A stretch of DNA of 64,000 bases from a virus (Duplodnaviria; Caudoviricetes). A program made the position numbers and the translations under genes. The notes beneath the pieces are model-generated. The model ran no database searches. It was not told the DNA's origin and saw only the letters and a program-made list of their open reading frames with translations. The stretch is from IMG/VR virus record IMGVR_UViG_3300025708_000007, positions 1 through 64,000 of that record; one strand, written 5' to 3'. Below are positions 33,579-60,871 of this stretch, in pieces (within the stretch, counting starts at the first letter, position 1; every line of letters starts with the position of its first letter).

Positions 33579-33609
33579 TTTGTATTTATGATTTTAAGTG
33601 CTATATTTG
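33579..33609 (+). promoter_or_regulatory. Bacteroidota sigma-A-type promoter of tRNA operon 1
   Basis: TTTG-N19-TATATTTG. Confidence 0.8.
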
Positions 33610-33642
33610 CACTATCATTTTTTAAGATTTATTGCTATAGTT

Positions 33643-33717
33643 ATGGAGAATTTTGTACATATTCAACCCCAGCCACAACAGCATCCACAAGATGGTGAAT
33701 GGGGAACATGTGCTTAA
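33643..33717 (+). CDS. attenuator leader peptide 1 (His/Gln/Pro-rich)
   Basis: MENFVHIQPQPQQHPQDGEWGTCA; upstream of Pro/His/Gln tRNAs. Confidence 0.8.
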   Translation: MENFVHIQPQPQQHPQDGEWGTCA

Positions 33718-33752
33718 TTTTTCGAAGATGAAGTTTTGAGTTAAACATTGTG

Positions 33753-33783
33753 AACCCCATTCTGAAAAGAGTGGGGTTTTTTT
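33753..33783 (+). terminator. attenuator terminator 1
   Basis: AACCCCATTC-TGAAAA-GAGTGGGGTT+T5; 5' arm is also complementary to GAATGGGG (33697-33704). Confidence 0.85.
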
Positions 33784-33796
33784 GTTCTTTGAAATT

Positions 33797-33871
33797 CTGG
33801 GTGTTCCGCAGATGGCTATACGGGCGTGCCTTGGAAGCACGTGTTCGCTGGTTCGAATCCAGCTACCCAGA
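33797..33871 (+). tRNA. tRNA-Pro(TGG)
   Basis: cloverleaf; CGTGC-CTTGGAA-GCACG; GTTCGAATC T-loop. Confidence 0.9.
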
Positions 33872-33877
33872 CAACAC

Positions 33878-33953
33878 GGTGAGCGTAGTTCAGTTGGCAG
33901 AACACCAGATTGTGGTTCTGGTTGTCGCTGGTTCGAATCCAGTCGTTCACCCA
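33878..33953 (+). tRNA. tRNA-His(GTG)
   Basis: cloverleaf; CCAGA-TTGTGGT-TCTGG; encoded G-1, C73. Confidence 0.92.
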
Positions 33954-34123
33954 AAAATATCGATGATTTTATCTATATTTTCAAAATATCGATGAATTTA
34001 TCGATAAAATGAAAATATCGCTTAATTACACGATAATTGTATTTATCACGTAAACAAGTGATAAATAAGTTCTTTGAATTAATGAAAAAATGGGATTTGA
34101 AAAATTTTCAAGTATTTATTTAC

Positions 34124-34531
34124 ATGAAATATCCTAAGATAATAAAACGTTGTCCTATTTGTGATAAAGAATTTGAAACAAAATCGGGACACCCCAAAGA
34201 AAAAACAGTTTGTTCACATTCTTGTGCAAACACATATTTTCGGTCTGGAACTTCAAATCCTAATTACAAAAATGATGATGAATTAACTGGTGTTGCGAAA
34301 TACATTAGAATTTGTTTTCGATATCATCCTAAAAAATGCGTCTGCTGCAATGAAACAAATATTGTGGAAGTGCATCATTATGATAATAATAAAGAAAATA
34401 ATTCACCCGAAAACTTAATACCTTTATGTCCAACACATCATCAATATTGGCACAGTAGATTTAGACATTTGATTAAAACAAAGATTGATAAATATATTGT
34501 GGAATTTAAAAAAAATTTTATCGGGGTGTAG
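34124..34531 (+). CDS. HNH homing endonuclease
   Basis: CPIC, CSHSC, CVCC...EVHHYD...NLIPLCPTHH; track start 34037, ATG 34124 preferred. Confidence 0.8.
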   Translation: MKYPKIIKRCPICDKEFETKSGHPKEKTVCSHSCANTYFRSGTSNPNYKNDDELTGVAKYIRICFRYHPKKCVCCNETNIVEVHHYDNNKENNSPENLIPLCPTHHQYWHSRFRHLIKTKIDKYIVEFKKNFIGV

Positions 34532-34594
34532 CGCAGTTGGTAGCGTACCTGCTTTGGGAGCAGGGGGTCGTCAGTTCGAGCCTGACTACCCCGA
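34522..34594 (+). tRNA. tRNA-Pro(TGG)
   Basis: cloverleaf; CCTGC-TTTGGGA-GCAGG. Confidence 0.93.
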
Positions 34595-34596
34595 CT

Positions 34597-34671
34597 GTGT
34601 TAGATGAAGATATTGGTTCTCTTCGCCTGATTGTGACTCAGGCTTCTGCGGGTTCGATTCCCGTCTAACAC
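34597..34671 (+). tRNA. tRNA-His(GTG)
   Basis: CCTGA-TTGTGAC-TCAGG; G-1, C73. Confidence 0.85.
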
Positions 34672-34679
34672 CTAATTAT

Positions 34680-34752
34680 TGTCTCGTGGTGTAACGGCTA
34701 ACATGGCTGACTCTGACTCAGGAGATTGCAGGTTCGAATCCTGCCGAGACAA
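34680..34752 (+). tRNA. tRNA-Gln(CTG)
   Basis: T1:A72 acceptor; loop CTCTGAC. Confidence 0.88.
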
Positions 34753-34756
34753 CAGT

Positions 34757-34849
34757 GGTGACAGATATAAAAAACTGCACGAGAAACAGACACGAGTGGG
34801 TTAAGAGTTGTTTTAATACCCGCAATGGTTGCCAGTACCTAATGTCACC
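34757..34849 (+). ncRNA. 93-nt structured element, copy 1
   Basis: 7-bp terminal stem GGTGACA/TGTCACC; core near-identical to 39727..39819. Confidence 0.7.
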
Positions 34850-34854
34850 CAAAT

Positions 34855-34937
34855 TGACCTCTGGCAGAATGGTTATTGCATCGGTCTTTGAAGCCGACAC
34901 CCTTTGTGGTTTACAGGTTCGAGTCCTGTGGGGTCAA
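34855..34937 (+). tRNA. tRNA-Gln(TTG) with long variable arm
   Basis: TCGGT-CTTTGAA-GCCGA; ~14-nt variable region. Confidence 0.75.
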
Positions 34938-35010
34938 CAAAATATATTTTTTTGCATATATTTTAATATGTTTGCATAAAATTATATTTATTTACATATA
35001 TTTGCATAAT

Positions 35011-35165
35011 TATTGTTACGTGACGAAGCGATTCGTAATTAAGCCTTTGACTGTAAACCTTCACAGGGGTTCGGTTGCTTTCAGGATATAGTTCACTGGT
35101 TATGTGGAAAGTAACACTGTGTTAAGTGATAACTTAATGAAAGTAAAGACAGTCCCGTAACAATA
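35011..35165 (+). ncRNA. candidate 155-nt multibranch ncRNA
   Basis: TATTGTTACG/CGTAACAATA closing stem with internal hairpins. Confidence 0.5.
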
Positions 35166-35168
35166 CAT

Positions 35169-35242
35169 TGACCCGTAGTGTAATTGGTTAACACGTCTCA
35201 CTTTGACTGAGAAGACTACAGGTTCGAGTCCTGTCGGGTCAA
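35169..35242 (+). tRNA. tRNA-Gln(TTG)
   Basis: TCTCA-CTTTGAC-TGAGA; T1:A72. Confidence 0.93.
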
Positions 35243-35712
35243 CTTTTTTTACGACAATGCGTTGGTAATGTTGCGTTACAGTTAGGACATAAAATTCTTA
35301 GATTTTCAATTCTATGGTCTGAATTATCACCATTAATATGGTCGAGAATTAAACTTATATGTTCACCGTTCCAATTTTCATTCTGACCACATTTTTCACA
35401 AATACGTTTTTTTAATCCTTCTTCATATAATCTATTCTTAATATTACCCAAATTTGTATAGGTTGAGCCAGACACTAAAATTTCGATTGTTGAAATTTTG
35501 CGAGAATTATTTAATTTGGTGTTTGTTCTCATATACCGTTCTACTTTTGATTCGAAATGTGAAATATCAATATCATATAATTTAATATATTTCTTTAGTG
35601 TAGGTCTCGAATTTCCTTTAATTCCCAATCCCAATTTTTGAAGTATTTCGGTATAATTTTTCGAGTTTTTTACAATAGGTTCAAAATTTTCTCGCAAATA
35701 TTTTGTTTTCAT
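35239..35712 (-). CDS. HNH homing endonuclease
   Basis: CEKC...LILDHINGDNSDHRIENLRILCPNC. Confidence 0.88.
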   Translation of the reverse strand: MKTKYLRENFEPIVKNSKNYTEILQKLGLGIKGNSRPTLKKYIKLYDIDISHFESKVERYMRTNTKLNNSRKISTIEILVSGSTYTNLGNIKNRLYEEGLKKRICEKCGQNENWNGEHISLILDHINGDNSDHRIENLRILCPNCNATLPTHCRKKS

Positions 35713-35777
35713 ATTTTATTTTTTTAACTTCGTGGTTTATTTTAAAATAAATAGTTAAAAATAAAAAAACAACAACG

Positions 35778-39104: not shown

Positions 39105-39135
39105 TTTGTTTATTTTGAAACATTTTTTATCTTTG
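39105..39135 (+). promoter_or_regulatory. Bacteroidota sigma-A-type promoter of tRNA operon 2
   Basis: TTTG-N19-TATCTTTG. Confidence 0.8.
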
Positions 39136-39200: not shown

Positions 39201-39296
39201 ATGAAAAGAATGCTCGACATATCAGTAATGGCAGTAGCCTTGAACGCAGTCCTATTATGGGATGCAGTAGAGGATGCGCTATGCAAAGTCGGGTAA
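39201..39296 (+). CDS. attenuator leader peptide 2 (Val/Ala/Leu/Asp/Glu/Trp)
   Basis: MKRMLDISVMAVALNAVLLWDAVEDALCKVG; upstream of Asp/Glu/Val/Leu/Ala/Trp tRNAs. Confidence 0.8.
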   Translation: MKRMLDISVMAVALNAVLLWDAVEDALCKVG

Positions 39297-39333
39297 TTTG
39301 TATTCATATACAACCTCCTTTCTAAATGAAAAG

Positions 39334-39365
39334 ACCCGACTTCCCTACAAGCCGGGTTTTTTTTT
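39334..39365 (+). terminator. attenuator terminator 2
   Basis: ACCCGACTT-CCCTAC-AAGCCGGGT+T run; 5' arm perfectly complementary to AAGTCGGGT (39286-39294). Confidence 0.85.
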
Positions 39366-39375
39366 GAAAGGAGAA

Positions 39376-39398: not shown

Positions 39399-39474
39399 GG
39401 TGCTGGGGTCTGCTTGGCGTGGACGCATGACTGTCACTCATGATATCAGGAGAGTTCGAATCTCTTCAGCACCG
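39399..39474 (+). tRNA. tRNA-Asp(GTC)
   Basis: CATGA-CTGTCAC-TCATG; G73. Confidence 0.9.
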
Positions 39475-39479
39475 CATAC

Positions 39480-39597
39480 GGTCTTATAAATAATTACCCT
39501 GAGTAAATCGGGTAGCCGATGTACACGGTTTGGAACGATTCGGAAAGCAAGCATGCATTGCTCGATGAGGGGGGGTTCGAATCCCTGTAAGACCGCA
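39480..39597 (+). ncRNA. tRNA-like RNA (acceptor + T-arm, non-tRNA interior)
   Basis: GGTCTTA/TAAGACC stem, GGGTTCGAATCCC, interior hairpins. Confidence 0.55.
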
Positions 39598-39602
39598 ATT
39601 TC

Positions 39603-39672
39603 GAGGTCGTAGTTTAATGGTTAGAATGCCACCCTGTCACGATGGAGAAGGGGTTCGAATCCCACGGCTTCG
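39603..39672 (+). tRNA. tRNA-Asp(GTC), degenerate
   Basis: loop CTGTCAC; short, imperfect T-stem. Confidence 0.6.
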
Positions 39673-39726
39673 GCAAATTTTACTGTTAAAGCAGTAAAAA
39701 GTGCCATATATGATACTAAAGATAGT

Positions 39727-39819
39727 GATGACCGATGTAAAAAACTGCACGAGAAACAGACACGAGTGGGTTAAGAGTTGTTTTAATACCCGCAACGGTT
39801 GCCAGTACCCAAGGTCATC
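39727..39819 (+). ncRNA. 93-nt structured element, copy 2
   Basis: GATGACC/GGTCATC terminal stem with two compensatory changes relative to copy 1. Confidence 0.7.
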
Positions 39820-39824
39820 CAGAT

Positions 39825-39898
39825 GCTGCGTTCGGCAAGATGGTTAAGCCGTAAGACCTTCAATCTTACATGCATGGGTTCGAGTCCCATACGCAGTA
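39825..39898 (+). tRNA. tRNA-Glu(TTC)
   Basis: TAAGA-CCTTCAA-TCTTA. Confidence 0.88.
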
Positions 39899-40013
39899 CA
39901 AGTGAAATCGAAATGTCGTAAGATAGTAGTAGTTAAGTCTACCGATTTTTGTGGTTTTGAGCACGAGACGCTCATGTAATAGGGCATACACTCCCTTTCC
40001 ACCACTTACTTAT

Positions 40014-40085
40014 GCTCGATTCTTCTAACGGTAAGGAAAACTGACTCTCAATCAGTTAATGGCAGTTCAATTCTGCCATCGAGTA
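40014..40085 (+). tRNA. tRNA-Glu(CTC)
   Basis: ACTGA-CTCTCAA-TCAGT. Confidence 0.85.
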
Positions 40086-40087
40086 CA

Positions 40088-40165
40088 ATTGGTCGGCTCG
40101 TCTAATTGGTTAGGACATCACCCTTTCACGGTGAAGATTTACGGGTTCGAGTCCCATACGCAATA
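40088..40165 (+). pseudogene. tRNA-Glu(TTC) with disrupted acceptor stem
   Basis: TCACC-CTTTCAC-GGTGA intact; acceptor strands pair poorly. Confidence 0.6.
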
Positions 40166-40262
40166 CAATGTTGAGGTGGTATTACACAGAGAAAAGAAAG
40201 TCTCTGCAGAGAACCTAAAAAATAATGGCTGCATGCGGGTGAAAATCCCGTCAACGTTAAAT

Positions 40263-40334
40263 GTCCGGTTCGTCTAACGGTTAGGACACCACCCTTTCAC
40301 GGTGAAAATACGAGTTCGATTCACGTACCGGATA
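40263..40334 (+). tRNA. tRNA-Glu(TTC)
   Basis: loop CTTTCAC; acceptor GTCCGGT/ACCGGAT. Confidence 0.88.
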
Positions 40335-40374
40335 CTATAAATCGGCACTAAATTCAATTTGCTGCCGAAAATTT

Positions 40375-40448
40375 GCTTCCTTAACTCAGTCCGGGAGAGT
40401 GTCTGTTTTACATACAGAAAGTCGCAGGTTCAAACCCTGCAGGAAGCA
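40375..40448 (+). tRNA. tRNA-Val(TAC)
   Basis: TCTGT-TTTACAT-ACAGA. Confidence 0.88.
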
Positions 40449-40641
40449 CAAAATGCCAAAGACTTGGGATAACATTCTCTTAAAGGGAAACCGGAGTAGT
40501 GATAGCTTAAACGAAGGGGTTTCATAGTCAATGGTAACAGCGAAAAGATAGCCACTCAGTAACTGTTGGGTGAGTAATGTAAGGGTTAAGCATGCCGGAG
40601 CGAAAGCCGGAAGATAAGGTTCGAATCCCCCACCCCAAAAT

Positions 40642-40719
40642 GCACTCTTAGCTCAGTTGGTTCAGAGCGTGTGCCTTACAAGCACAGGGTCGGGGGTTCG
40701 AATCCCTCAGAGTGCACCA
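40642..40719 (+). tRNA. tRNA-Val(TAC)
   Basis: TGTGC-CTTACAA-GCACA; encoded CCA. Confidence 0.95.
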
Positions 40720-40795
40720 AAATGAAAAATATGCTCAAAAACAAAAAAATATTATACTTTTGAGCATATGTTAGTATTTATTGTAAATTATTATC

Positions 40796-41293
40796 ATGGA
40801 AAGCTGTATTTTTTGTGGACATAGCAATATCGTTAGGGCAGGTAAAAATAAAAGGGGTAGTCAAAGATATATTTGCAGAAAATGTGGTAAATATTTTAAC
40901 GAAAATACTGACCCAAACATTGGAGTTATATTAAATGGTAAAAAATATTGTTCTAAGTGTAAAACATTTAAGTTAGTATCGGAATTTCAATCAACAAATG
41001 GTAGATTACGTTATTGTTGTAAAAAATGTGCATCAAAATCAAGTAAAGCAAGATTCAGAAATCATAATATAACTGAATTTGAATTCGTTAATTTAATCGA
41101 TAGTCAAAAAAATATGTGTCCAATATGTGGGGATAAATTTAAATCATATAAACATGCAATTATTGACCATAATCATAAAAATGGTAAAAATAGAGAATTA
41201 TTATGTTCTAAATGTAATACGTTGTTAGGTATGTGTAATGATAATATTGATATTCTCAATAGTGCAATCAATTATTTATTAAAACACAATTAA
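40796..41293 (+). CDS. endonuclease VII-like homing endonuclease with N-terminal zinc ribbons
   Basis: CPIC...IIDHNHKNGKNRELLCSKCNTLLG. Confidence 0.82.
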   Translation: MESCIFCGHSNIVRAGKNKRGSQRYICRKCGKYFNENTDPNIGVILNGKKYCSKCKTFKLVSEFQSTNGRLRYCCKKCASKSSKARFRNHNITEFEFVNLIDSQKNMCPICGDKFKSYKHAIIDHNHKNGKNRELLCSKCNTLLGMCNDNIDILNSAINYLLKHN

Positions 41294-41350
41294 TTTATCG
41301 GTATATTTGCCTATAAAGATATATTATCGGCTCTACAACCGATAAAATTT

Positions 41351-41433
41351 CCTCAAGTGTTGTAATTGGGTAGCCAAGCCAGACTAAGAATCTGGTGTCG
41401 AAAGATGTGTGGGTTCGAGTCCCACCTTGAGGA
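41351..41433 (+). tRNA. tRNA-Leu(AAG)
   Basis: CCAGA-CTAAGAA-TCTGG; long variable arm; A73. Confidence 0.88.
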
Positions 41434-41439
41434 CAAAAT

Positions 41440-41526
41440 GCGGATGTGATGGAATGGTAGACATGATACGCTTAGAACGTATTGCGAAGTAATAGTAGCG
41501 TGGGGGTTCGAGTCCCTTCATCCGTA
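41440..41526 (+). tRNA. tRNA-Leu(TAG)
   Basis: ATACG-CTTAGAA-CGTAT; long variable arm. Confidence 0.92.
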
Positions 41527-41532
41527 CTAAAT

Positions 41533-41607
41533 GCTGGTGTAGCCGAATGGTAAAGAGGCAACTGTTTTAGAAACAGAAATTTGTGGGTTCGACTCCCACC
41601 ACCAGTA
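41533..41607 (+). tRNA. tRNA-Leu(TAG), short variable loop
   Basis: CTGT-TTTAGAA-ACAG; A73. Confidence 0.78.
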
Positions 41608-41837
41608 CAAAGATGTTAATAAATAGAGTTGAGGGGCAGTAAGAGTGGTAATGAAAAGTCCTGAGAACCACCACCAGTTTGTTAACATTGAGAGAGGCGC
41701 ATGACAGATTCGAGCAGGGATGACTGCGTAGCCTGTACCAAGTGTTCTTAAAAGTGAAGGAGTAATACCTTCAGGCGCATTATTTCGAACTGCAAAGGGG
41801 TAATGGTCGAATTACTAATAAGGTACTACTCTCATTT

Positions 41838-41911
41838 GGGGTCGTAGCTCAATTGGCAAGAGCACCTGCCTTGCACGCAGGGGGTTGAGGGTTCGAGTCC
41901 CTTCGACTCCA
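41838..41911 (+). tRNA. tRNA-Ala(TGC)
   Basis: CCTGC-CTTGCAC-GCAGG; G3:U70. Confidence 0.95.
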
Positions 41912-41914
41912 CAA

Positions 41915-41994
41915 AATGAAATACAGAAAGTCTGGGTCAAACCCCAGAGAGACGTAAAATGTCGAGAAGTGTGACGGCACGTCTGTATTTCATT
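41915..41994 (+). ncRNA. candidate 80-nt four-way-junction RNA
   Basis: perfect 13-bp closing stem AATGAAATACAGA/TCTGTATTTCATT enclosing three hairpins. Confidence 0.55.
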
Positions 41995-41998
41995 CTTT

Positions 41999-42070
41999 GG
42001 GGCAGTAACTCAACGGCTGAGTGCTTGACTTGCAATCAAGTGTATGCGGGTTCGAATCCCGTCTGCTCCA
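41999..42070 (+). tRNA. tRNA-Ala(TGC)
   Basis: CTTGA-CTTGCAA-TCAAG; G3:U70. Confidence 0.92.
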
Positions 42071-42151
42071 CAAAATTGGTTGGAATTATTCCGTCAATTC
42101 TGTAATAAGAGCGTCAACAGCTACGGCATTAACTCTTTCCAATTTTAACAT

Positions 42152-42232
42152 GACCCCTTGAATTATGCAAAATAGGCACAGCAGACAGGCTTAAACCCTG
42201 ATTCTTTGTGGGTTCGAGTCCCACAGGGGTTA
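42152..42232 (+). tRNA. tRNA-Leu(TAA), atypical D region and short variable loop
   Basis: CAGG-CTTAAAC-CCTG; GACCCCT/AGGGGTT acceptor. Confidence 0.65.
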
Positions 42233-42241
42233 CAAATTTAC

Positions 42242-42315
42242 GGCACAGTAGTCCAACTGGCAGAGATACCCGCCTCAAAAGCGGTTCAGTGTGGGTTCGA
42301 ATCCCACCTGTGCTA
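42242..42315 (+). tRNA. tRNA-Leu(CAA), short variable loop
   Basis: loop CTCAAAA; 5-nt variable loop; A73. Confidence 0.82.
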
Positions 42316-42366
42316 CAAGCACGCACACAATGAATCGAAAATAAATTTTCGAAGTATTTATGATAT

Positions 42367-43035
42367 ATGATACCACTATATACACAAACGGAATTTGATT
42401 TAGCAAAAGATAATGATAAATTACCTTGTAAATGTGTTGAATGTGGTAAAATTTTTTATAAACTGAAAAGGGTGATAAAAAGAACATTCATTGGCTACGA
42501 TAGAAACATTGGTGATTATTGTTCAAGAAGATGTGCTCGATTATCAAAAAAATCGAGTGCAGATGTTGTTTGCAGTAATTGTGGAAAATCTTTCAATAAA
42601 GTAAAAAGTCAAATTAAAAGAAGCAAAAATCATTTTTGTTCTAAATCATGTTCTGCAATTTATAATAACGTCCATAAAAAACATGGAACACGAAAATCCA
42701 AACTTGAAAAATGGTTGGAATATAATCTCACCAAAATATACCCAGACTTAAATTTTCATTTTAATTGCAAAGACACCATTAATTCAGAACTTGATATTTA
42801 TATTCCATCATTAAAATTAGCTTTTGAATTAAATGGAATATACCATTACGAACCAATATATGGTGAGGATAAACTTCAACAAATTCAAAGCAATGATAAT
42901 CGTAAATTTCAAGCCTGTTTGGAAAAAGGTATCGAACTATGTATTATTGATACTTCACAACAAAAATATTTTAAAGAACAAACATCACAAAAATATTTAA
43001 AAATCGTACAAGAAATAATAAACACACATCGGTAG
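42367..43035 (+). CDS. zinc-finger + PD-(D/E)xK/Vsr-like putative homing endonuclease
   Basis: CVEC, CSRRC, CSNC, CSKSC; ELDIYIPSLKLAFELNG. Confidence 0.75.
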   Translation: MIPLYTQTEFDLAKDNDKLPCKCVECGKIFYKLKRVIKRTFIGYDRNIGDYCSRRCARLSKKSSADVVCSNCGKSFNKVKSQIKRSKNHFCSKSCSAIYNNVHKKHGTRKSKLEKWLEYNLTKIYPDLNFHFNCKDTINSELDIYIPSLKLAFELNGIYHYEPIYGEDKLQQIQSNDNRKFQACLEKGIELCIIDTSQQKYFKEQTSQKYLKIVQEIINTHR

Positions 43036-43097
43036 TTCAGTGGTAGAACGTTGGTCTCCAAAACCAAATGTCGGGTGTTCGAATCGCCCCCGGTGTG
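43026..43097 (+). tRNA. tRNA-Trp(CCA)
   Basis: TTGGT-CTCCAAA-ACCAA. Confidence 0.92.
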
Positions 43098-43103
43098 CTA
43101 AAT

Positions 43104-43178
43104 GTGTCTGTCGTCTAATGGCTAAGATATTGGCTTCCAAACCCAAGGATGAAGGTTCGAGTCCTTCCAGACATGCCA
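43104..43178 (+). tRNA. tRNA-Trp(CCA)
   Basis: loop TTCCAAA; encoded CCA. Confidence 0.85.
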
Positions 43179-45494: not shown

Positions 45495-45519
45495 CTAAAA
45501 CATTTAAAACATTGAAATT

Positions 45520-46295: not shown

Positions 46296-46385
46296 GGGGG
46301 TGTGATGAAATTGGTAGCACATACGGGACTTAAAATCCCGTGGGCAGTAATGCCCGTGTCGGTTCGAGTCCGACCACCCCTACCA
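46296..46385 (+). tRNA. tRNA-Leu(TAA)
   Basis: CGGGA-CTTAAAA-TCCCG; long variable arm; encoded CCA. Confidence 0.95.
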
Positions 46386-46497
46386 AAACATTTGGTAGCA
46401 TTGCTACAAATAAACAAAGGCGGGTGTGGTGTCCCAACATCGGCAATTTAGATGCAATTGTCGGTAGCATGAGTTCGAGTCTCACCACCAAATGTTT
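46386..46497 (+). ncRNA. tRNA-like RNA with T-arm and long hairpin
   Basis: AAACATTTGGT/ACCAAATGTTT stem, GAGTTCGAGTCTC T-arm, 10-bp hairpin with 7-nt loop. Confidence 0.5.
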
Positions 46498-46512
46498 TTA
46501 AATTAAAATGAT

Positions 46513-46695
46513 ATGTTGTCATACGGAAAAAATAAGAAAATGCGTGAAAACTATCCTGACAATCATCCCAAGAAAGGATATGTAAACTGGTGGGAAGTTG
46601 AACTTGGAGATATTGATAAAGGTCGTGAACGTCAAGAAGCAAAACGTAACATAAAAAAAGAATTAAATGATGAAACTATTGGCAGGAATGATTGA
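46513..46695 (+). CDS. hypothetical protein
   Basis: 60-aa basic ORF. Confidence 0.55.
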   Translation: MLSYGKNKKMRENYPDNHPKKGYVNWWEVELGDIDKGRERQEAKRNIKKELNDETIGRND

Positions 46696-46781
46696 AATGT
46701 TCAGAATGTTGTTTATTAACAGTTATGATGACCCATACACTGAATACCTTTCGGAACAACCGGGTATTTATGTTCACATAA

Positions 46782-47078
46782 GTGATGTTTATGATAATGT
46801 TTAGAGAAATGCGTAAAGAAGTTAAGTTTTTATCAAAAGAAATTAAATTTGCAATTCGTAAAGAAATTCGCAAAGAATGCCGTCAGGAAGCAATACGAAT
46901 ACTTGAACTTGCAGAGGAAAAAGACCGTGAGGATTTTCTTAAATATCATAAAGAAGACCAAGGAAACATTTGCTGTATGGTGTTGGATTTTGCAAAGAAA
47001 AAATTAGTTGAAAAGGGTGTTATGGAACAAAAACCAAACGATTGTTTTGAAGACCCGACAATACATTTGGAAAAATGA
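46782..47078 (+). CDS. hypothetical protein
   Basis: 98-aa ORF. Confidence 0.55.
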   Translation: MMFMIMFREMRKEVKFLSKEIKFAIRKEIRKECRQEAIRILELAEEKDREDFLKYHKEDQGNICCMVLDFAKKKLVEKGVMEQKPNDCFEDPTIHLEK

Positions 47079-47196
47079 AAATCAAAAAGAATTTCAATCC
47101 CAATGATTGTGGTTGTGGTAAATCTTTAAAAACTAAGGATTCTCGAAGAAAAAATACCACACCAAAACGAATAATAAAGAAAAAAAGTAACCTCAA

Positions 47197-47742
47197 GTGA
47201 TGGATAATAAATCATATTCATATTTGTTGGGGCAGTATTTAGGTGACGGCTGTGTTTCTGAAACAAAAAGAACGTATAGATTACGTATTTTTAATGACGT
47301 TAAATATAATCATTTAAATGACTATATATTTCAAACAATACAAAAAATATTTCCAAACAATAAGGTGAATACATGTTTTTATCAAAATCATGTTATTACT
47401 TATGTTTATTCAAATGAAATTCCCAAATTATTTCCACAACACAATCTGGGATTAAAAAAAAATAGAAAAATTCAATTATATGACTGGCAAATAAAAATAT
47501 TGGACTATAAATATTTATTTGCAGGATTGTTGCATTCAGATGGTTGTATTTATTTTGACAGAGGATATAAAATGTGTGTATTTACTAACACTTCATTAGA
47601 CATATTGGACATTTTTAAAGATTGTTGCGATAAATTAAATATTGAATACACCATCAATAAAAATAGGATACAAATAAGAAAAAGAAAATCTAATGATTGG
47701 ATTGAAGAAAATGTTGGTGATAAAAATATAATTAAAATATAA
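47197..47742 (+). CDS. LAGLIDADG-family homing endonuclease
   Basis: two motifs YLLGQYLGDGC and LFAGLLHSDGC. Confidence 0.85.
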   Translation: MMDNKSYSYLLGQYLGDGCVSETKRTYRLRIFNDVKYNHLNDYIFQTIQKIFPNNKVNTCFYQNHVITYVYSNEIPKLFPQHNLGLKKNRKIQLYDWQIKILDYKYLFAGLLHSDGCIYFDRGYKMCVFTNTSLDILDIFKDCCDKLNIEYTINKNRIQIRKRKSNDWIEENVGDKNIIKI

Positions 47743-47743
47743 T

Positions 47744-47817
47744 GCCCAGATGACGGAATTGGCATACGTATTAGATTCAAAACCTAAGTTTTGTGGGTTC
47801 GACTCCCACTCTGGGCA
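47744..47817 (+). tRNA. tRNA-Leu(CAA), short variable loop
   Basis: loop TTCAAAA; 5-nt variable loop; A73. Confidence 0.8.
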
Positions 47818-47837
47818 CTAAAAAAAATGTATTGGTT

Positions 47838-48341
47838 ATGGCAAAAATACTCAAAGTTCCAATGAAAGGACAATGGTATGATTTTGATTGCGGTGTTGCT
47901 ATAACATATTCAATATTAAGATATCTCAAAATAAAGGTTAGTTATGAAGATGTTTTAAAAACATCAAAAGTGTGCCCGGTAAATGGCATAAAGCCAAACA
48001 AGCTTATCAATTTGTTTAAAAAATTTGGATTGAATGCTGTTTGCGAAAACGATAAAAACATTAGATTCTTAATCAAACAAATAAATGCCAATAATCCAGT
48101 AATTGTATTAATTCAATGTAGAAAAGAATATAAAAAGTCTTGGGCGAGTACGTGGGCACACGGACACTACGTTGTGGTAATTGGTTACGATAAAAACAGA
48201 GTATTTATATTTGACCCGTCAATGGGTGGTAGCATAAAAACATTTACACATAAACAATTTTATGGTCGTTGGCATGATTATTCAAAAAATAATACTTATA
48301 TTCGAACCGTAATTTATATTGATGATGAAAATGAGAAATGA
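47838..48341 (+). CDS. C39-like cysteine peptidase
   Basis: QWYDFDCGVA (Q...C), HGHYVVVIGYD, FDPSMG. Confidence 0.8.
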   Translation: MAKILKVPMKGQWYDFDCGVAITYSILRYLKIKVSYEDVLKTSKVCPVNGIKPNKLINLFKKFGLNAVCENDKNIRFLIKQINANNPVIVLIQCRKEYKKSWASTWAHGHYVVVIGYDKNRVFIFDPSMGGSIKTFTHKQFYGRWHDYSKNNTYIRTVIYIDDENEK

Positions 48342-48376
48342 AAGGGCATCAGTCTTTTAAGTTAATTACTTAAAAG

Positions 48377-48700
48377 ATGAAAGCAAAAAAAATCTCAGAC
48401 GAAACCACTAATCGTGGTGAATTCAATCGTGCATACAAGTTTTATCTTGAGCACAGTGGCAAAATTAGCTGTAGTTATTGTCGTTACAATCGTGGCGAAA
48501 ATTCAAATCAAAAATGGTATGGTGGTTATCTTTATGATGACATGGAAATTTGTCGTGGTAAAAGAAAGGGAACAAATACCAGATTTCCAAACTGGAAACT
48601 TGTTTCAAAAAATAAAAAACAGTGGATGGAAAAGCCAATCAAAATGAAAAAAAGATATTTTGGTGGGTATACCAGAATTTATATCGACATTGTTTGGTAA
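48377..48700 (+). CDS. hypothetical basic protein
   Basis: CSYCRYNRGEN and NWKLVSKNKKQW motifs. Confidence 0.7.
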   Translation: MKAKKISDETTNRGEFNRAYKFYLEHSGKISCSYCRYNRGENSNQKWYGGYLYDDMEICRGKRKGTNTRFPNWKLVSKNKKQWMEKPIKMKKRYFGGYTRIYIDIVW

Positions 48701-48712
48701 TGTCGATTATTT

Positions 48713-48785
48713 GGCGGGATAGCTCAGTTGGTAGAGCGATGGAGTCATAACCCATAGGTCGTGAGTTCGAATCTCACTCCCGCTA
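48713..48785 (+). tRNA. tRNA-Met(CAT) (elongator; Ile2 not excluded)
   Basis: GGCGGGA acceptor; loop GTCATAA. Confidence 0.88.
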
Positions 48786-48789
48786 CAAA

Positions 48790-52295: not shown

Positions 52296-53390
52296 ATGAA
52301 GTTAAATTACAAAATATTAGAAAAGGTCGATTGGAAAGTCTTGCAGACTTACATTGATAACAGTCTTATTGTCGCAAATAAGCATCCAGAATATGACATT
52401 TGGATATTGAACTATTCACCAAAAGTTCAATCTAAGAAATTCTGGGATGAATATACTTTATCTGCACGTGGACTCGTTATTGATGCAGAGGGTAATATTG
52501 TTGCACGTCCATATCAGAAGTTCATGAACCTTGAAGAACATGACCCAGCAGACATTGATATGTCTCAGGAATATGAGGTTTTTGAAAAGGTAGATGGGTC
52601 ATTAATCATCCTTTTCTATTACGAACCACGTATGCAATGGATTTTTGCTTCAAGAGGCTCATTCATTTCAGAACAGGCATTGGAAGCACAGAAAATGTTC
52701 AACCACACTGTTCAGGAAAAAATGAGTTCAAAATATACTTATTTGTTTGAAGTCTTATATCCAGAAAACCGTATTGTGGTTGATTATGGTAGCAGAAGGG
52801 AACTTGTGTTACTTGGAAAAATGAACACCACTACGGGTGAAGAATGCCCATACGAATATCTTGTTGACAAATATTCAAAGCATTTTACTGTCGTGAAAAG
52901 AATTGACGTAAGACTCGATAATTTATCCGAATTAAAAAGGCTTGAAGAAGACAACAAGGAAGGGTTCGTGGTGAGATTCAAGAACGGTTTCAGGGTTAAA
53001 GTCAAATTTAACGAATACGTTAGATTGCATGGTATTCTAACAAATGTTTCAAACATAACTGTTTGGGAACATTTGGTGAATAACTACAATTTTGACCAGT
53101 TACTTGACAGAGTGCCAGACGAATTTTATGGTTGGCTACAAAGAGTCGTAGCGTCATTGCAAGGAAAATACGATGAAATTGAAAAAGAATCGTTGAAAGA
53201 ATTCGTGAGAATTTACCACACCAATGGTATTATTGAACGTAAGGATTTTGCAATGGAAGCTTTGAAATCGGACTACCGTTCGATTCTTTTCAAAATGTAC
53301 GACAAAAAACCATATGAATCGATAATCTGGAATATGGTGCGTCCTGTATATAGTAAGCCATTCAAGGATGGTTTCGAATATAGTATATAA
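52296..53390 (+). CDS. ATP-dependent RNA ligase (T4 Rnl1-like)
   Basis: motif I EKVDGS, ARGLV, YLFEVLYPENRIVVDY, EGFVVRF, RVKVKFNEY. Confidence 0.88.
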   Translation: MKLNYKILEKVDWKVLQTYIDNSLIVANKHPEYDIWILNYSPKVQSKKFWDEYTLSARGLVIDAEGNIVARPYQKFMNLEEHDPADIDMSQEYEVFEKVDGSLIILFYYEPRMQWIFASRGSFISEQALEAQKMFNHTVQEKMSSKYTYLFEVLYPENRIVVDYGSRRELVLLGKMNTTTGEECPYEYLVDKYSKHFTVVKRIDVRLDNLSELKRLEEDNKEGFVVRFKNGFRVKVKFNEYVRLHGILTNVSNITVWEHLVNNYNFDQLLDRVPDEFYGWLQRVVASLQGKYDEIEKESLKEFVRIYHTNGIIERKDFAMEALKSDYRSILFKMYDKKPYESIIWNMVRPVYSKPFKDGFEYSI

Positions 53391-54895: not shown

Positions 54896-54926
54896 TTTGT
54901 TTTTATCGTATTTATCCTTACATTTG
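54896..54926 (+). promoter_or_regulatory. Bacteroidota sigma-A-type promoter of tRNA operon 3
   Basis: TTTG-N19-TACATTTG. Confidence 0.8.
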
Positions 54927-54954: not shown

Positions 54955-55044
54955 ATGATGACTATTTTTGGAACATATTATTACGGTAAAAAATCTTATA
55001 AGAAACAACTTATAGGAATCGGGAATACTATGTCCAAAAATTAA
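54955..55044 (+). CDS. attenuator leader peptide 3 (Tyr/Lys-rich)
   Basis: MMTIFGTYYYGKKSYKKQLIGIGNTMSKN; upstream of Tyr/Lys tRNAs. Confidence 0.85.
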   Translation: MMTIFGTYYYGKKSYKKQLIGIGNTMSKN

Positions 55045-55072: not shown

Positions 55073-55101
55073 AACCCGATTCCGAAAGAGTCGGGTTTTT
55101 T
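55073..55101 (+). terminator. attenuator terminator 3
   Basis: AACCCGATT-CCGAAAG-AGTCGGGTT+T run; CCCGATTCC also pairs with GGAATCGGG (55015-55023). Confidence 0.85.
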
Positions 55102-55113
55102 ATTTTGTATATT

Positions 55114-55195
55114 CGGCAGAATGGTAAGTGGGTGAAATCACAGGTCTGTAAAACCTTCGCCATTGGCTATGGGGGTTCGAATCCCTCTCTGCCGA
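55114..55195 (+). tRNA. tRNA-Tyr(GTA)
   Basis: loop CTGTAAA; long variable arm. Confidence 0.88.
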
Positions 55196-55244
55196 CTGAA
55201 AGAGTTTAGGCATTTTCTGTATCGCTGACTGAAATATCCAAATT

Positions 55245-55318
55245 GACTTCGTATCCGTAGTGGCTTTCGGACTTGACTCTTAATCAAGGATACGTGGGTT
55301 CGAATCCCACCGAGGTCA
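55245..55318 (+). tRNA. tRNA-Lys(CTT)
   Basis: CTTGA-CTCTTAA-TCAAG. Confidence 0.88.
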
Positions 55319-55323
55319 CAAAT

Positions 55324-55406
55324 GGGAGTGCGCTATCGTTGGAGAGATAGGCTTGTCTGTAAAACAAGTGCCATTGGCTGAGTTGGTTCGAATCCTATCG
55401 CTCCCA
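55324..55406 (+). tRNA. tRNA-Tyr(GTA)
   Basis: CTTGT-CTGTAAA-ACAAG; long variable arm. Confidence 0.88.
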
Positions 55407-55413
55407 CAAATTT

Positions 55414-55486
55414 GCGCTTGTAACTCAGTTGGTAGAGTAACGGACCTTTAATCCGTGAGTCGTGGGTTCGACCCCCACCGGGCGCA
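55414..55486 (+). tRNA. tRNA-Lys(TTT), C at position 33
   Basis: ACGGA-CCTTTAA-TCCGT. Confidence 0.82.
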
Positions 55487-55493
55487 CAAATAT

Positions 55494-55567
55494 TCTCCTA
55501 TAGCAAACAGGATGTATTGCCCCGCTCTTTTAAAGCGGTGGGTCTGGTTCGATTCCAGATAGGAGAA
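55494..55567 (+). tRNA. tRNA-Lys(TTT)
   Basis: CCGCT-CTTTTAA-AGCGG. Confidence 0.82.
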
Positions 55568-55655
55568 CAGACAAGCATTGTGTTCATACTAACATTTAAT
55601 TAATGAATATAATGCTTTTTCGTTTTGCAATGTATTTATCATAAAAGTATTTTTT

Positions 55656-56300
55656 ATGTATCATTGCAATAAATGTGATAAAAACTTCGAAAATCGGTAT
55701 TCTTATATAGCACATTGCCGAATTCATTCCAATTATGTAAGACCCAAAAATCCAAATTCAAGACGAAATAAACCACCCAAAACAATATGTATATATTGTG
55801 GTAAAACTTTTCAGAATGGACGTAGTTTAGGTGGACACATGACCCATTGCGAATTAAATCCAAATCATAATCTTATTTTACAAAACATGTCCAAAGCAAG
55901 TCCAAAACGAAAATGGTCAGAAGAAGATAAAAAGAAAATTAGTAGAAGAATGATTGAATTTTTAATGAAAAATCCAGACAAAGTACCATATAAATTAAAT
56001 CATTCAAGTAAAATGAGTTATCCTGAAAGAGTATTTGAAAATGCATTAAAATCAGCAAATATTTCAGGTTGGACATACAATTACCAAAATGGAATTTATT
56101 CATATGACTTTGCGTTTCCAGTTTTGAAAATAGATGTGGAAATTGATGGAAATACACATATCCAAGAAAAGGTGAGAAATATTGATAAACGCAGGGATAA
56201 ATTTAGTACCAATAATGGTTGGATTGTAATTCGTTTTACCGCAAATGAAATTAAAGAAGATGTTTTGAAATGTATAAATACATTAAAAACATTTCTTTAA
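55656..56300 (+). CDS. C2H2 zinc-finger + DUF559/Vsr-like endonuclease
   Basis: CNKC...HCRIH, CIYC...HMTH; YDFAFPVLKIDVEIDGNTH...RDKF. Confidence 0.8.
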   Translation: MYHCNKCDKNFENRYSYIAHCRIHSNYVRPKNPNSRRNKPPKTICIYCGKTFQNGRSLGGHMTHCELNPNHNLILQNMSKASPKRKWSEEDKKKISRRMIEFLMKNPDKVPYKLNHSSKMSYPERVFENALKSANISGWTYNYQNGIYSYDFAFPVLKIDVEIDGNTHIQEKVRNIDKRRDKFSTNNGWIVIRFTANEIKEDVLKCINTLKTFL

Positions 56301-60014: not shown

Positions 60015-60015
60015 T

Positions 60016-60198
60016 ATGATAATATTGGAAAACAAAATTATTGGTGAAAAGTACGTTGCAGGATATTACCTGACAATGGAAGATTTAAAAAGGCTTGTAA
60101 GAGATTTTCAAGCAGATTGTCACGATGGATTCATAAGTAATGATGAAGCATATCTTGAACAGTGGCTTAAAAAGCACGAACGAATCGAAAAAAAATAA
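60016..60198 (+). CDS. hypothetical protein
   Basis: 60-aa ORF directly after the nrdJ stop. Confidence 0.6.
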   Translation: MIILENKIIGEKYVAGYYLTMEDLKRLVRDFQADCHDGFISNDEAYLEQWLKKHERIEKK

Positions 60199-60275
60199 GC
60201 AAAAACCCCGGAAAGCCAGTATTTTCGGGGTTTTTTATTGTTTGTTGTAGTATTTATTATAAAAAATTATAAATC

Positions 60276-60491
60276 ATGGAAACTGTGTTAACAATATTGT
60301 TACTTTACATATTGGGAGTGACAATTTATACTATCTTGGTAAGAAAAAGTCCAACAAATAAACATGTGCCGAACTTTAATTATAAGTCAACAATAATTGA
60401 TGGAATGAAAGGGATGGCTATTGGTTTTGCAGTTGTCGGTGCATTATATTTTATCTTAGGACAAATTTTAACTTGGGTTCATATACATTGA
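60276..60491 (+). CDS. two-TM membrane protein
   Basis: two hydrophobic helices; AGTATTTATT upstream. Confidence 0.65.
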   Translation: METVLTILLLYILGVTIYTILVRKSPTNKHVPNFNYKSTIIDGMKGMAIGFAVVGALYFILGQILTWVHIH

Positions 60492-60546
60492 ATATTAACG
60501 AGTTAGATTTTTTCTGTAAAAAAAATGAAAAAAATATTGAAAATAA

Positions 60547-60577
60547 TTTGGTATTTATGAAACATTTTATACCTTTG
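60547..60577 (+). promoter_or_regulatory. Bacteroidota sigma-A-type promoter of tRNA operon 4
   Basis: TTTG-N19-TACCTTTG. Confidence 0.8.
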
Positions 60578-60646
60578 CATCGTATTTAGGTAAAAATGAG
60601 TTTATGAAAAAACCTTTTTATTATTAAAAACAAAAAAAATAAAACA

Positions 60647-60781
60647 ATGAAACGAATAGCGTACATATTAGTATCGAGTCTAACGACAACCAGTCGTATT
60701 GGAGAAGGTACATTTTGCTCAGATTTCGGCAGAAATAATATTGCGGATACGGGTTCAGGTTTTATTGACTTAAAAAGATAA
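60647..60781 (+). CDS. attenuator leader peptide 4 (Thr/Ser/Ile/Gly/Phe/Cys/Asn/Arg)
   Basis: MKRIAYILVSSLTTTSRIGEGTFCSDFGRNNIADTGSGFIDLKR. Confidence 0.75.
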   Translation: MKRIAYILVSSLTTTSRIGEGTFCSDFGRNNIADTGSGFIDLKR

Positions 60782-60814
60782 GTAGGTAGTAAAATAAAAC
60801 TGAAATAAAATCAG

Positions 60815-60846
60815 AACCCGGAATCCAAAAAAGTTCCGGGTTTTTT
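60815..60846 (+). terminator. attenuator terminator 4
   Basis: AACCCGGAAT-CCAAAAAA-GTTCCGGGTT+T run; GAACCCG pairs with CGGGTTC (60750-60756). Confidence 0.85.
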
Positions 60847-60871
60847 GTTTTTAATGCGTTCTTTACATATT

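Follow-up and report, generated by a model that had tools for sequence, protein, structure and literature searches.

Putative leader-peptide attenuators in front of four phage tRNA arrays

Phage tRNA arrays are viewed as codon-usage compensation or as a replacement for host tRNAs cut by anticodon nucleases, as for T4 and T5, and the usual view of tRNA genes, in bacteria as in phages, is that they are expressed constitutively or under growth-rate control. The DNA analysed here (the window, 64,000 nt of a 91-kb contig) is a giant-phage fragment. It carries 41 tRNAs and one tmRNA as called by ARAGORN. We propose that four cassettes in front of the arrays are ribosome-mediated (leader-peptide) transcription attenuators, in which slow decoding leads to read-through into the matching tRNAs. 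In the absence of expression data, we consider this reading likely.

Layout of the four cassettes

The arrays start at positions 33797, 39399, 55114 and 60872 (ARAGORN), and the same order of elements is observed in front of all four: a Bacteroidota-type promoter, an ORF of 24-44 codons, an intrinsic terminator and the first tRNA. This shared architecture had been described in the initial annotation, and promoters, ORFs, terminators and tRNAs were all located where it had placed them. Promoters of the form TTTG-N19-TAnnTTTG lie at 33579, 39105, 54896 and 60547; the motif has 10 matches in the window compared to 1.1 expected from shuffled sequence. The leader ORFs start 22-62 nt downstream of the -7 box. 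Each terminator consists of a GC-rich stem of 10-12 bp and a T-tract and ends 10-30 nt 5' of the first tRNA, so that no space is left for a separate promoter. A scan of the whole 91-kb contig for promoter-then-terminator cassettes within 280 nt returned only these four. In all of them the downstream genes are tRNAs, not amino-acid biosynthesis or synthetase genes. Promoters, leader ORFs, terminators, arrays and the segments of the ORFs that are complementary to the terminator 5' arm (region 2) are on the + strand throughout.

Cassette 1 (His/Gln/Pro) is insulated by an upstream terminator (33502-33535). Promoter 1, with a -33 TTTG and a -7 TAnnTTTG element, spans 33579..33609 and is followed by leader ORF 1 (33643..33717), in which 10 of the 24 codons specify His, Gln or Pro, all of them within codons 6-16. 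Region 2 of this leader, the antiterminator strand (33697..33704), is the exact complement of 33755-33762 in terminator 1 (33752..33786), which has a 12-bp stem and a T-tract and ends 10 nt before the first tRNA. Array 1 (33797..35243; ARAGORN) encodes tRNAs for Pro, His, Pro, His, Gln, Gln and Gln and contains an HNH endonuclease ORF at 34037-34531.

Cassette 2 (Asp/Glu/Val/Leu/Ala/Trp) consists of promoter 2 (39105..39135), leader ORF 2 (39201..39296), terminator 2 (39332..39368) and array 2 (39399..43178), with two tRNAs for Asp, three for Glu, two for Val, four for Leu, two for Ala and two for Trp, and with embedded endonuclease-like ORFs. Leader ORF 2 has 31 codons, 20 of which belong to the amino acids of the array, and also internal Met codons. 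Its region 2 (39286..39294) is a 9-nt complement of 39334-39342 and overlaps the stop codon.

Cassette 3 (Tyr/Lys) comprises promoter 3 (54896..54926), leader ORF 3 (54955..55044; 29 codons) with a Tyr/Lys-rich core in codons 8-17, and terminator 3 (55073..55103), which ends 10 nt before the first tRNA of array 3 (55114..55568; Tyr, Lys, Tyr, Lys, Lys). Relatives start at the second ATG (54958). Region 2 (55015..55023) is complementary to 55075-55083.

In cassette 4, promoter 4 (60547..60577) precedes leader ORF 4 (60647..60781), in which 30 of the 44 codons are for Thr, Cys, Asn, Phe, Ser, Arg, Gly or Ile. Region 2 (60750..60756) is a 7-nt exact complement of 60814-60820, with extra pairs in the fold, and terminator 4 (60812..60852) is followed by array 4 (60872..63876) with tRNAs for Thr, Cys, Asn, Phe, Ser, Phe, Arg, Phe, Gly, Ile and Asn.

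The cassettes had been said to control all four tRNA operons. This holds for the window, but the distal tRNAs of the contig, at 46296-48786 in the window and at 65649-73366 past its end, have no leader of their own. For the groups at 65649, 66916, 68340, 70421 and 73291, no leader-terminator cassette was found in the contig scan. We interpret these groups as distal parts of existing operons and not as extra operons; co-transcription has not been shown. The distal tRNAs match codons of leaders 2 and 4, and the contig at 65649-70506 carries more Thr, Arg, Gly and Ser tRNAs, which match leader 4. Protein genes and a promoter-like site at 63885, however, lie between distal tRNAs and leaders, which counts against a shared operon. 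The tRNAs Leu(taa), Leu(caa) and Met at 46296..48786 (+ strand) are probably distal members of operon 2, again without proof of co-transcription: their codons TTA, TTG and ATG occur in leader 2, and in the related locus L095 these tRNAs are contiguous with the array.

Leader composition and array content

The residue counts given in the initial annotation, 10/24, 20/31, 9/29 and 26/44 for leaders 1-4, agreed with our recount. For leader 4 the count rises from 26/44 to 30/44 with Arg, because ARAGORN calls a tRNA-Arg at 62761. Enrichment of own-array residues relative to the contig proteome was observed for all four leaders (binomial p = 1e-5, 2.3e-4, 0.012 and 1.6e-4 for leaders 1-4), and all 12 off-diagonal combinations of leader and array were non-significant. 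The enrichment is also specific to the reading frame. In the ATG frame, own-array codons account for 10/23, 20/30, 9/28 and 30/43 codons of leaders 1-4, compared to 4 and 1, 3 and 4, 2 and 6, and 14 and 22 in the respective other frames. These four leaders had not been filtered beforehand. When anticodon entries are summed over the four operons and the distal tRNAs are included, a cognate codon is present in the operon's own leader for 33 of 34. Together the leaders cover all 20 amino acids.

Dozens of related phage contigs in IMG/VR, up to 675 kb long, also carry the cassettes, and their architecture is retained even though proteins encoded nearby share only 52-86% identity between contigs. 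The leader in relatives was taken as the longest ORF starting after the -7 box. Homologues of leader ORF 1 were found in L010, L011 and L094, those of leader ORF 2 in L010, L011 and L095, and those of leader ORF 4 in more than 12 loci. The 17 leader-3 homologues all keep the ATG; variation among them is greatest at third codon positions, and one indel preserves the reading frame.

A further check proposed at the outset was whether leader composition tracks array content at homologous loci, and across three tRNA groupings it was observed to do so. The large array is split in G001 and G002 into a Thr/Arg/Ile and an Asn/Phe/Ile/Ser/Gly/Leu/Cys operon, and each leader matches its own group. Phages of 420-675 kb (G003-G005) have the groups Thr/Gly/Ala/Gln/Pro/Arg, Leu/Asp/Asn/Met/Glu/Tyr and Ser/Trp/Ile/Val/His/Lys(/Phe/Tyr), which are likewise mirrored by the leaders. 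Own-array enrichment was significant for 12 of 12 leader types from the three groupings (p 2e-6 to 0.012) and for 46 of 55 unique leaders (p<0.05), and the true pairing of leaders with arrays was the best of all 24, 120 and 6 permutations of the respective groupings. Fisher's combined p is 5e-30 for the 12 types, with related leaders treated as independent, and 1.5e-25 for nine less-related types. Since related leaders are not phylogenetically independent, these pooled values overstate the evidence. Over 43 leaders, own-array codons make up 50% of the ATG frame compared to 19% and 25% of the other two frames. The share of own-array residues also differs along the ORF, with 59% upstream of region 2 and 25% from region 2 to the stop codon. 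The leader set behind both statistics had been pre-filtered for enrichment, in frame 0 for the former.

A leader in L011/L013 retains its Val/Ala/Leu/Glu codons, although the tRNAs left in its array are those for Asp and Trp only; a tmRNA and a Leu tRNA come next. As judged from the sequences, this is a partial counter-example, in which the leader appears to have been kept after most of the array was lost. The comparative data carry most of the evidential weight. Outside this set, a BLAST search with two cassette regions against 50,697 GenBank phage records gave tRNA-level matches only and no relatives, even with settings for distant similarity, and the leader-3 core was found among 185,579 bacterial species genomes in one contig only, a mis-binned phage, which revealed neither a host nor a bacterial counterpart.

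Antiterminator pairing, proposed switch and alternatives

An ORF segment of 7-9 nt complementary to the terminator 5' arm had been claimed for each leader and was found in all four, with exact complements of 8, 9, 8-9 and 7 nt inside ORFs 1-4. Random genome windows of the same length reached these values in 0.5%, 0.24%, 0.33% and 4.5% of trials, respectively. Over 30 distinct arm sequences, region 2 is complementary to its own terminator arm over a mean of 7.4 nt, compared to 5.2 nt for foreign terminators. Region 2 and the terminator arm change together between homologues; in L010, both strands of the leader 1 pairing are altered in a compensatory way.

These elements suggest the following switch. 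Transcription would start from the Bacteroidota-type promoter, and the leader ORF, built mainly from codons read by the downstream-encoded tRNAs, would be translated during RNA synthesis. When matching charged tRNA is scarce, slow decoding would stall the ribosome 5' of region 2. The free region 2 could then pair with the terminator 5' arm, no terminator hairpin would form and the polymerase would read into the array. Under fast decoding, the ribosome would cross region 2 and halt on it or within the would-be pairing loop, the terminator would form and the array would remain untranscribed. Each tRNA subset would in this way be produced on demand, and production would be self-limiting. Translation of the leaders, the direction of the switch and its natural trigger are inferred, and read-through has likewise not been demonstrated; that the trigger is starvation or an anticodon nuclease, as had been suggested, is pure inference. 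The tests that sequence alone permits were favourable to attenuation, namely array- and frame-specific enrichment, the position of the matching residues 5' of region 2, the folds with a stalled ribosome and the homologues.

Folding with and without a ribosome had been put forward as a check. When leaders 2-4 were folded without the terminator 3' arm, the helix between region 2 and the terminator 5' arm formed. When a ribosome mask was placed on the own-array codons, all 43 leaders kept more than 50% of the terminator 5' arm sequestered (thermodynamic folds), as a stall that keeps the terminator from forming would require. A mask at the stop codon, in contrast, freed the arm in only 14 of 43 leaders in a simple footprint model. 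In leaders 1 and 2, a ribosome that has reached the stop codon is predicted to mask region 2 directly. The median distance from region 2 to the stop codon 3' of it is 19 nt (range 0-35); in leaders without direct masking this distance is 16-35 nt, which puts the stop codon within the antiterminator loop. As the stop mask fails to free the arm in most leaders, termination under fast decoding needs an extra assumption, either that a ribosome inside the loop of 31-73 nt blocks closure of the antiterminator or that timing decides.

The his/trp/thr-type geometry that had been claimed for all cassettes applies in full only to leader 1. Its folds contain, in addition, a helix between region 1 and region 2 and so have the classical four-segment layout. 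Region 1, which consists of Pro/Gln codons (33667..33671, + strand), pairs with 33700-33704 in the MFE fold, and in the fold without a ribosome the sequestered fraction of the terminator 5' arm is only 0.28. On this model, region 1 may hold back the antiterminator strand when the ribosome is absent. For leaders 2-4 without a ribosome, the antiterminator is the default fold, unlike trp. Stop codons are also often located over 15 nt 3' of region 2. A hairpin between segments 1 and 2 was not evident in the folds of leaders 2 and 4. Leader 3 contains a conserved 9-bp hairpin (54994..55017, + strand), whose 5' arm is formed by Ser-Tyr-Lys codons and whose 3' arm overlaps region 2. It is paired in 17 of 17 homologues, with one covarying pair (G-C to A-U), and is a candidate pause or anti-antiterminator hairpin.

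The default antiterminator leaves room for a different output of translated leaders and terminators, such as stability or processing of the tRNA precursor, or a global sensing of translation capacity (shut-off, ribosome availability): with the antiterminator as the ribosome-free state of leaders 2-4, a general loss of translation would open every array. Most leaders also have a stop-codon geometry that gives no direct masking. A global sensor, however, would have no need for an array-specific composition that tracks regrouped arrays in other lineages, and own-array codons are concentrated 5' of region 2, as codon-specific stalling predicts. We regard such other outputs as improbable.

It is also conceivable that the ORF is incidental and that the leader RNA binds tRNAs through codon-like triplets without translation, as a multi-specifier T-box would. 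The leader RNA is strongly conserved in nucleotides and contains conserved hairpins, and expression data for translation of the ORF are lacking. The matching triplets, however, share the reading frame of an invariant ATG and occur far less often in the other two frames, and coding is also consistent with the in-frame indels and the variation at third positions. Without a ribosome, ten to thirty separate 3-nt contacts would, we infer, be energetically weak. Neither the T-box nor any other Rfam cis-regulatory family was matched with E up to 1. A cmscan with all 4227 Rfam families returned only tRNA, tmRNA and sub-threshold chance matches, with no match of the Trp, His, Thr, Leu and Phe leader families in the leaders and none of the T-box (RF00230) in 30000-64000. 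Identity with a T-box riboswitch was rejected, given the lack of a covariance-model match and a signal that is frame-specific across many codons; the broader idea of a translation-independent switch seems very unlikely.

Small ORFs are frequent in AT-rich DNA, and the peptides of leaders 3 and 4 are conserved in sequence. Both facts would suit independent small-protein genes with their own terminators that stand before the arrays by chance or synteny, with the arrays using other promoters. But the gap between terminator and tRNA is too short for a promoter, and in 12 independent or semi-independent types the leader reflects its array in composition. In L058, moreover, a frameshift alters the C-terminal peptide, yet the nucleotides of region 2 are retained. 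The peptides themselves probably have no function as products. Small-protein genes would also give the complementarity between region 2 and the terminator no role, and we find this explanation hardly tenable. A chance resemblance without function, which has nothing in its favour beyond the small size of each element, is ruled out by the statistics and the conservation, since every component is above chance and the architecture persists among the diverged contigs.

Relation to known attenuators and possible role

Leader-peptide attenuation, which we prefer over these alternatives, has enterobacterial precedents that sense several amino acids: the ilvGMEDA leader senses Ile, Leu and Val, and the thr leader senses Thr and Ile. 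As in the phage, codons for several amino acids are abundant in a short leader, downstream of which antiterminator and terminator hairpins can form as alternatives, and a stall at any sensed codon leads, in the phage case by proposal, to read-through. The phage elements differ in that they control tRNAs and not biosynthetic enzymes, in that up to eight amino acids would be sensed per leader, and in that the antiterminator strand is part of the ORF, whose stop codon follows 0-35 nt further on. A clear anti-antiterminator is also not seen in three of the four phage leaders, and the phage promoters are of the Bacteroidota type. Leader 1 comes closest to the classical four-segment attenuators trpL and hisL, with its Pro/Gln codons as segment 1 and a segment 2 that pairs with either segment 1 or the terminator 5' arm. 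It shares no sequence or Rfam kinship with them, however, and its output is tRNA genes, with three amino acids sensed.

Attenuation of a component of the translation apparatus is known from E. coli pheST, where the pheM leader controls phenylalanyl-tRNA synthetase and, as proposed for the phage, reads the supply of charged tRNA. There, a synthetase gene responds to one amino acid, whereas in the phage the product of the operon would itself be the sensed molecule, which would result in direct negative feedback. T-box elements also report tRNA status through a choice between terminator and antiterminator. Unlike the phage leaders, they bind uncharged tRNA directly without a ribosome and have a single specifier codon and the conserved T-box sequence. 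tRNA genes as the regulated output are a departure from known leader-peptide attenuators. A literature search found no account of conditional, codon-sensing control of phage tRNA arrays, and one on leader-peptide attenuation in Bacteroidota found nothing usable.

If the attenuators work as proposed, the decoding speed of the ribosome would feed back on transcription of the tRNAs in use, which would be a new mode of tRNA gene regulation. It would explain why the tRNAs of huge phages are ordered in conserved amino-acid groups, and the leader would be a readable label in front of the array that predicts its content. More tentatively, and with clearly less confidence than in attenuation as such, the leaders might perform a real-time audit of nearly every phage isoacceptor, in which destruction or withholding of tRNAs by the host opens only the matching operon, which recloses once the tRNA is supplied. 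Possible host causes on this tentative reading are anticodon nucleases, tRNA-cleaving abortive-infection systems and a mismatch in codon usage. Such an audit would be a self-tuning counter-defence at the translation apparatus. Like the tRNA sets of T4 and T5, the phage-encoded set is large, and a T4 Rnl1-type RNA ligase gene lies near the arrays; the audit may cooperate with this ligase and the phage tmRNA. With the cassettes, a response of phage tRNA sets to depletion of host tRNAs or to defence by anticodon nucleases becomes directly testable. At less than 300 nt each, they could also serve as engineering parts, as small modular sensors that report how well chosen tRNAs are supplied.

Leader cassettes and their codon content

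The window covers the first 64 kb of one virus contig, which is 90,967 bp long. ARAGORN identified 41 tRNA genes and one tmRNA in the window and 50 tRNA genes in the whole contig, with arrays starting at 33797, 39399, 55114 and 60872. The initial annotation had described a shared layout of promoter, ORF of 24-44 codons, terminator and first tRNA, and this cassette was found upstream of all four arrays. Its first element, the motif TTTG-N19-TAnnTTTG, occurs 10 times in the window (1.1 matches expected by shuffling), four times as part of the array cassettes. Downstream of the motif lie ATG-initiated ORFs of 24, 31, 29 and 44 codons (leaders 1-4), each followed by a GC-rich hairpin with a T-tract, which ends just 10-30 nt before the first tRNA. 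In a scan of the whole contig, a promoter followed by a terminator within 280 nt was found in exactly these four places. Cassette 1 is insulated upstream by a further terminator at 33502-33535.

The leaders are enriched in the amino acids carried by the tRNAs of their own array. Using the large ORFs of the same contig as binomial background and leaving out the initiator Met, own-array residues account for 10/23 in leader 1 (Pro/His/Gln; p = 1e-5), 20/30 in leader 2 (Asp/Glu/Val/Leu/Ala/Trp; p = 2.3e-4), 9/28 in leader 3 (Tyr/Lys; p = 0.012) and 30/43 in leader 4 (Thr/Cys/Asn/Phe/Ser/Arg/Gly/Ile; p = 1.6e-4). A recount reproduced the residue counts of the initial annotation. All 12 wrong leader/array pairings were non-significant and most were depleted. 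In the proposed comparison with random small ORFs, only 3, 3, 5 and 23 of the 519 small ORFs of the contig matched the fractions of leaders 1-4. The enrichment is confined to the ATG frame: own-array codons number 10/23 in leader 1 (4 and 1 in the two other frames), 20/30 in leader 2 (3 and 4), 9/28 in leader 3 (2 and 6) and 30/43 in leader 4 (14 and 22). Over 43 leaders, a set that was pre-filtered for enrichment, the own-array fraction is 50% in the ATG frame compared to 19% and 25% in the others. We count this frame-specificity as evidence, computational only, that ribosomes translate the triplets. TAA is the stop codon of all four window leaders, which TAG suppression would therefore leave unaffected. 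An amber-suppressor tRNA (anticodon CTA) at contig positions 73291-73366, beyond the window, points to recoding of TAG at some time during infection.

Leaders of related phages

No relatives were found among GenBank phages. In IMG/VR, queries with the neighbouring C1 peptidase, an unnamed 307-aa protein and ribonucleotide reductase retrieved 92 loci. Because these lie on contigs of up to 675 kb, we place the window, as a fragment, in a jumbo- or megaphage lineage.

The initial annotation had proposed to compare leader composition with array content in related phages, and the leaders do follow arrays that are grouped differently. In two related contigs (G001/G002), the large array is divided into two operons. 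The Thr/Arg/Ile half stands behind a leader consisting mostly of Ile/Thr/Arg codons, and the second half, an Asn/Phe/Ile/Ser/Gly/Leu/Cys operon, has a leader rich in just those residues, with Leu now among them. Phages of 420-675 kb (G003-G005) group their tRNAs as Thr/Gly/Ala/Gln/Pro/Arg, Leu/Asp/Asn/Met/Glu/Tyr and Ser/Trp/Ile/Val/His/Lys, the last with Phe or Tyr added in some, and in each case leader composition mirrors the leader's own group. Taking one leader per type (12 types, three groupings), own-array enrichment was observed in 12/12 types (p from 2e-6 to 0.012), and the true assignment ranks best of all 24, 120 and 6 permutations, respectively. In the leaders, enrichment is 2.4-fold for amino acids that have a tRNA in the array and 0.64-fold for the others. 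Under an objective ORF rule, 46 of the 55 unique leaders are significant (p<0.05); among the others, most have an array cut by the locus end, a weak terminator without promoter box, or a tRNA that ARAGORN misses and Rfam finds. The leaders are mutually related, and pooled p-values therefore overstate independence; the independent evidence is the regrouping events. As a counter-example, the operon 2 leader of two related loci (L011/L013) retains Val/Ala/Leu/Glu codons in front of an array of only Asp and Trp tRNAs, followed by protein genes, a tmRNA and a Leu tRNA. Tracking is therefore imperfect or not immediate. Disagreement between tRNA callers on some of these phage tRNAs can produce false mismatches. 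At about 998-1081 of locus L096 (G002 215497-215580), Rfam places a tRNA directly behind a Tyr/Lys-type leader; ARAGORN finds no tRNA there and calls the next gene Leu(gag).

More than 20 loci, with peptidases of only 52-86% identity, carry the Tyr/Lys leader, and an exact-pattern scan found the leader 3 core in 26 viral contigs. In an alignment of 17 homologues, the ATG is invariant, one indel is in frame and third codon positions are the most variable in the N-terminal and Tyr/Lys parts, while the spacer from stop codon to terminator varies freely. In locus L058, a 1-nt deletion alters the C-terminal peptide and leaves the antiterminator nucleotides unchanged, which fits a peptide without function of its own. 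The sole 'bacterial' genome contig with the leader 3 core (JBAZIW010000001.1, 362,763 bp) bears the label of a Candidatus Paceibacterota MAG; it is probably a mis-binned megaphage, its length being identical to that of IMG/VR phage contig 3300029288_000055.

Predicted antiterminator pairing and the stop codon

The claimed complementarity between the ORF and the 5′ arm of the terminator holds, with segments (region 2) of 8, 9, 8-9 and 7 nt in leaders 1-4. Complements of such length occur in 0.5%, 0.24%, 0.33% and 4.5% of random genome windows of equal length (20,000 trials). Region 2 matches its own terminator arm over 7.4 nt compared to 5.2 nt for foreign arms (30 different arms), and the two strands co-vary between homologues, being altered together. 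The share of own-array residues is 59% in the part of the ORF 5′ of region 2 and 25% in the remainder, region 2 included, which is precisely the arrangement that codon-specific stalling requires.

Folds of the nascent RNA that end at the terminator loop pair region 2 with the terminator arm in leaders 2-4. In leader 1, it is Pro/Gln codons that pair with region 2 (33667-33671 with 33700-33704), in a predicted helix that corresponds to the classical four-segment layout. Folding with a ribosome-protected window, as had been suggested, sequestered more than half of the terminator 5′ arm in 43/43 leaders when a 30-nt mask was placed on an own-array codon. Leaders 2-4 would also read through upon total translation failure. 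The leader 3 family carries a 9-bp hairpin across its Ser-Tyr-Lys codons, paired in 17/17 sequences and with one covarying pair (G-C to A-U), which may be a pause or anti-antiterminator element.

Stop-codon geometry is the weak point of the proposed mechanism. The stop lies a median of 19 nt (range 0-35) 3′ of region 2, and in a simple footprint model only 14 of the 43 leaders have their terminator arm freed by a ribosome at the stop. In all 43, the stop falls on region 2 or within the 31-73 nt antiterminator loop. It is from this position, with no calculation behind it, that we infer that a terminating ribosome would block antiterminator pairing sterically or kinetically.

Known attenuators, operon extent and neighbouring genes

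The logic of leader-peptide attenuation is known; the novelty is tRNA genes as the regulated target. The phage cassettes share their logic with the multivalent leader-peptide attenuators of ilv and thr, and leader 1 with those of trp and his, while the pheST synthetase leader is the nearest known system by target. In contrast to these, the regulated product here is the tRNAs themselves, so that feedback would be direct, and a single leader would sense as many as eight amino acids. The leaders had no match among the Rfam leader and T-box models, and a full-text literature search found no published description of such control of tRNA genes. All evidence for the attenuators is computational; translation and read-through are inferred.

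Leader 2 contains TTA, TTG and ATG codons, matching tRNAs at 46296-48786, and codons in leader 4 correspond to the Thr, Arg, Gly and Ser tRNAs at 65649-70506. When the distal tRNAs are counted, the four operons add up to 34 anticodon entries, of which 33 find a cognate codon in the leader of their operon, and the leaders jointly cover all 20 amino acids. In relatives, the distal tRNAs are contiguous with the arrays; in this contig they are set apart by other genes, some of them endonuclease-like, and by a promoter-like site at 63885. They may be distal members of operons 2 and 4, as inferred from codon match and from the layout in relatives. The promoter-like site, a perfect TTTG-N19-TAnnTTTG motif (63885-63915) right behind the last tRNA of array 4 and before protein genes, may start a separate unit with the distal Thr/Arg/Gly/Ser tRNAs.

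A tmRNA (45122-45495; Rfam 105.7 bits) lies between proximal array 2 and Leu/Leu/Met tRNAs, and in the relative L013 one is placed likewise (10235-10599). A ribosome-rescue RNA inside an operon proposed to use ribosome stalling may be more than coincidence. A T4 Rnl1-type RNA ligase (52296-53390; Pfam RNA_lig_T4_1, E 1.4e-21) precedes the Tyr/Lys cassette by 1.6 kb. Enzymes of this class mend tRNA cleaved by anticodon nuclease in T4, and by analogy the ligase would be consistent with a conflict over tRNA. The gene at 51767-52258 encodes a Mom-family protein (DNA-modification family, E 3e-10), that at 57447-60014 the large subunit of a class I/II-type ribonucleotide reductase (E 4e-89); the reductase as marker recovered 78 related loci. 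ORFs within or adjoining the arrays (34037-34531, 40796-41293, 47197-47742, 55656-56300 and 61360-61953) carry HNH, endonuclease VII, LAGLIDADG, DUF559/zinc-finger and HTH domains and are probably homing endonucleases or mobile genes that split arrays. Partial tRNA-like and tmRNA-like Rfam matches, below or near threshold, at 40100-40157 and 61912-61992 in arrays 2 and 4 may be decayed tRNA genes.
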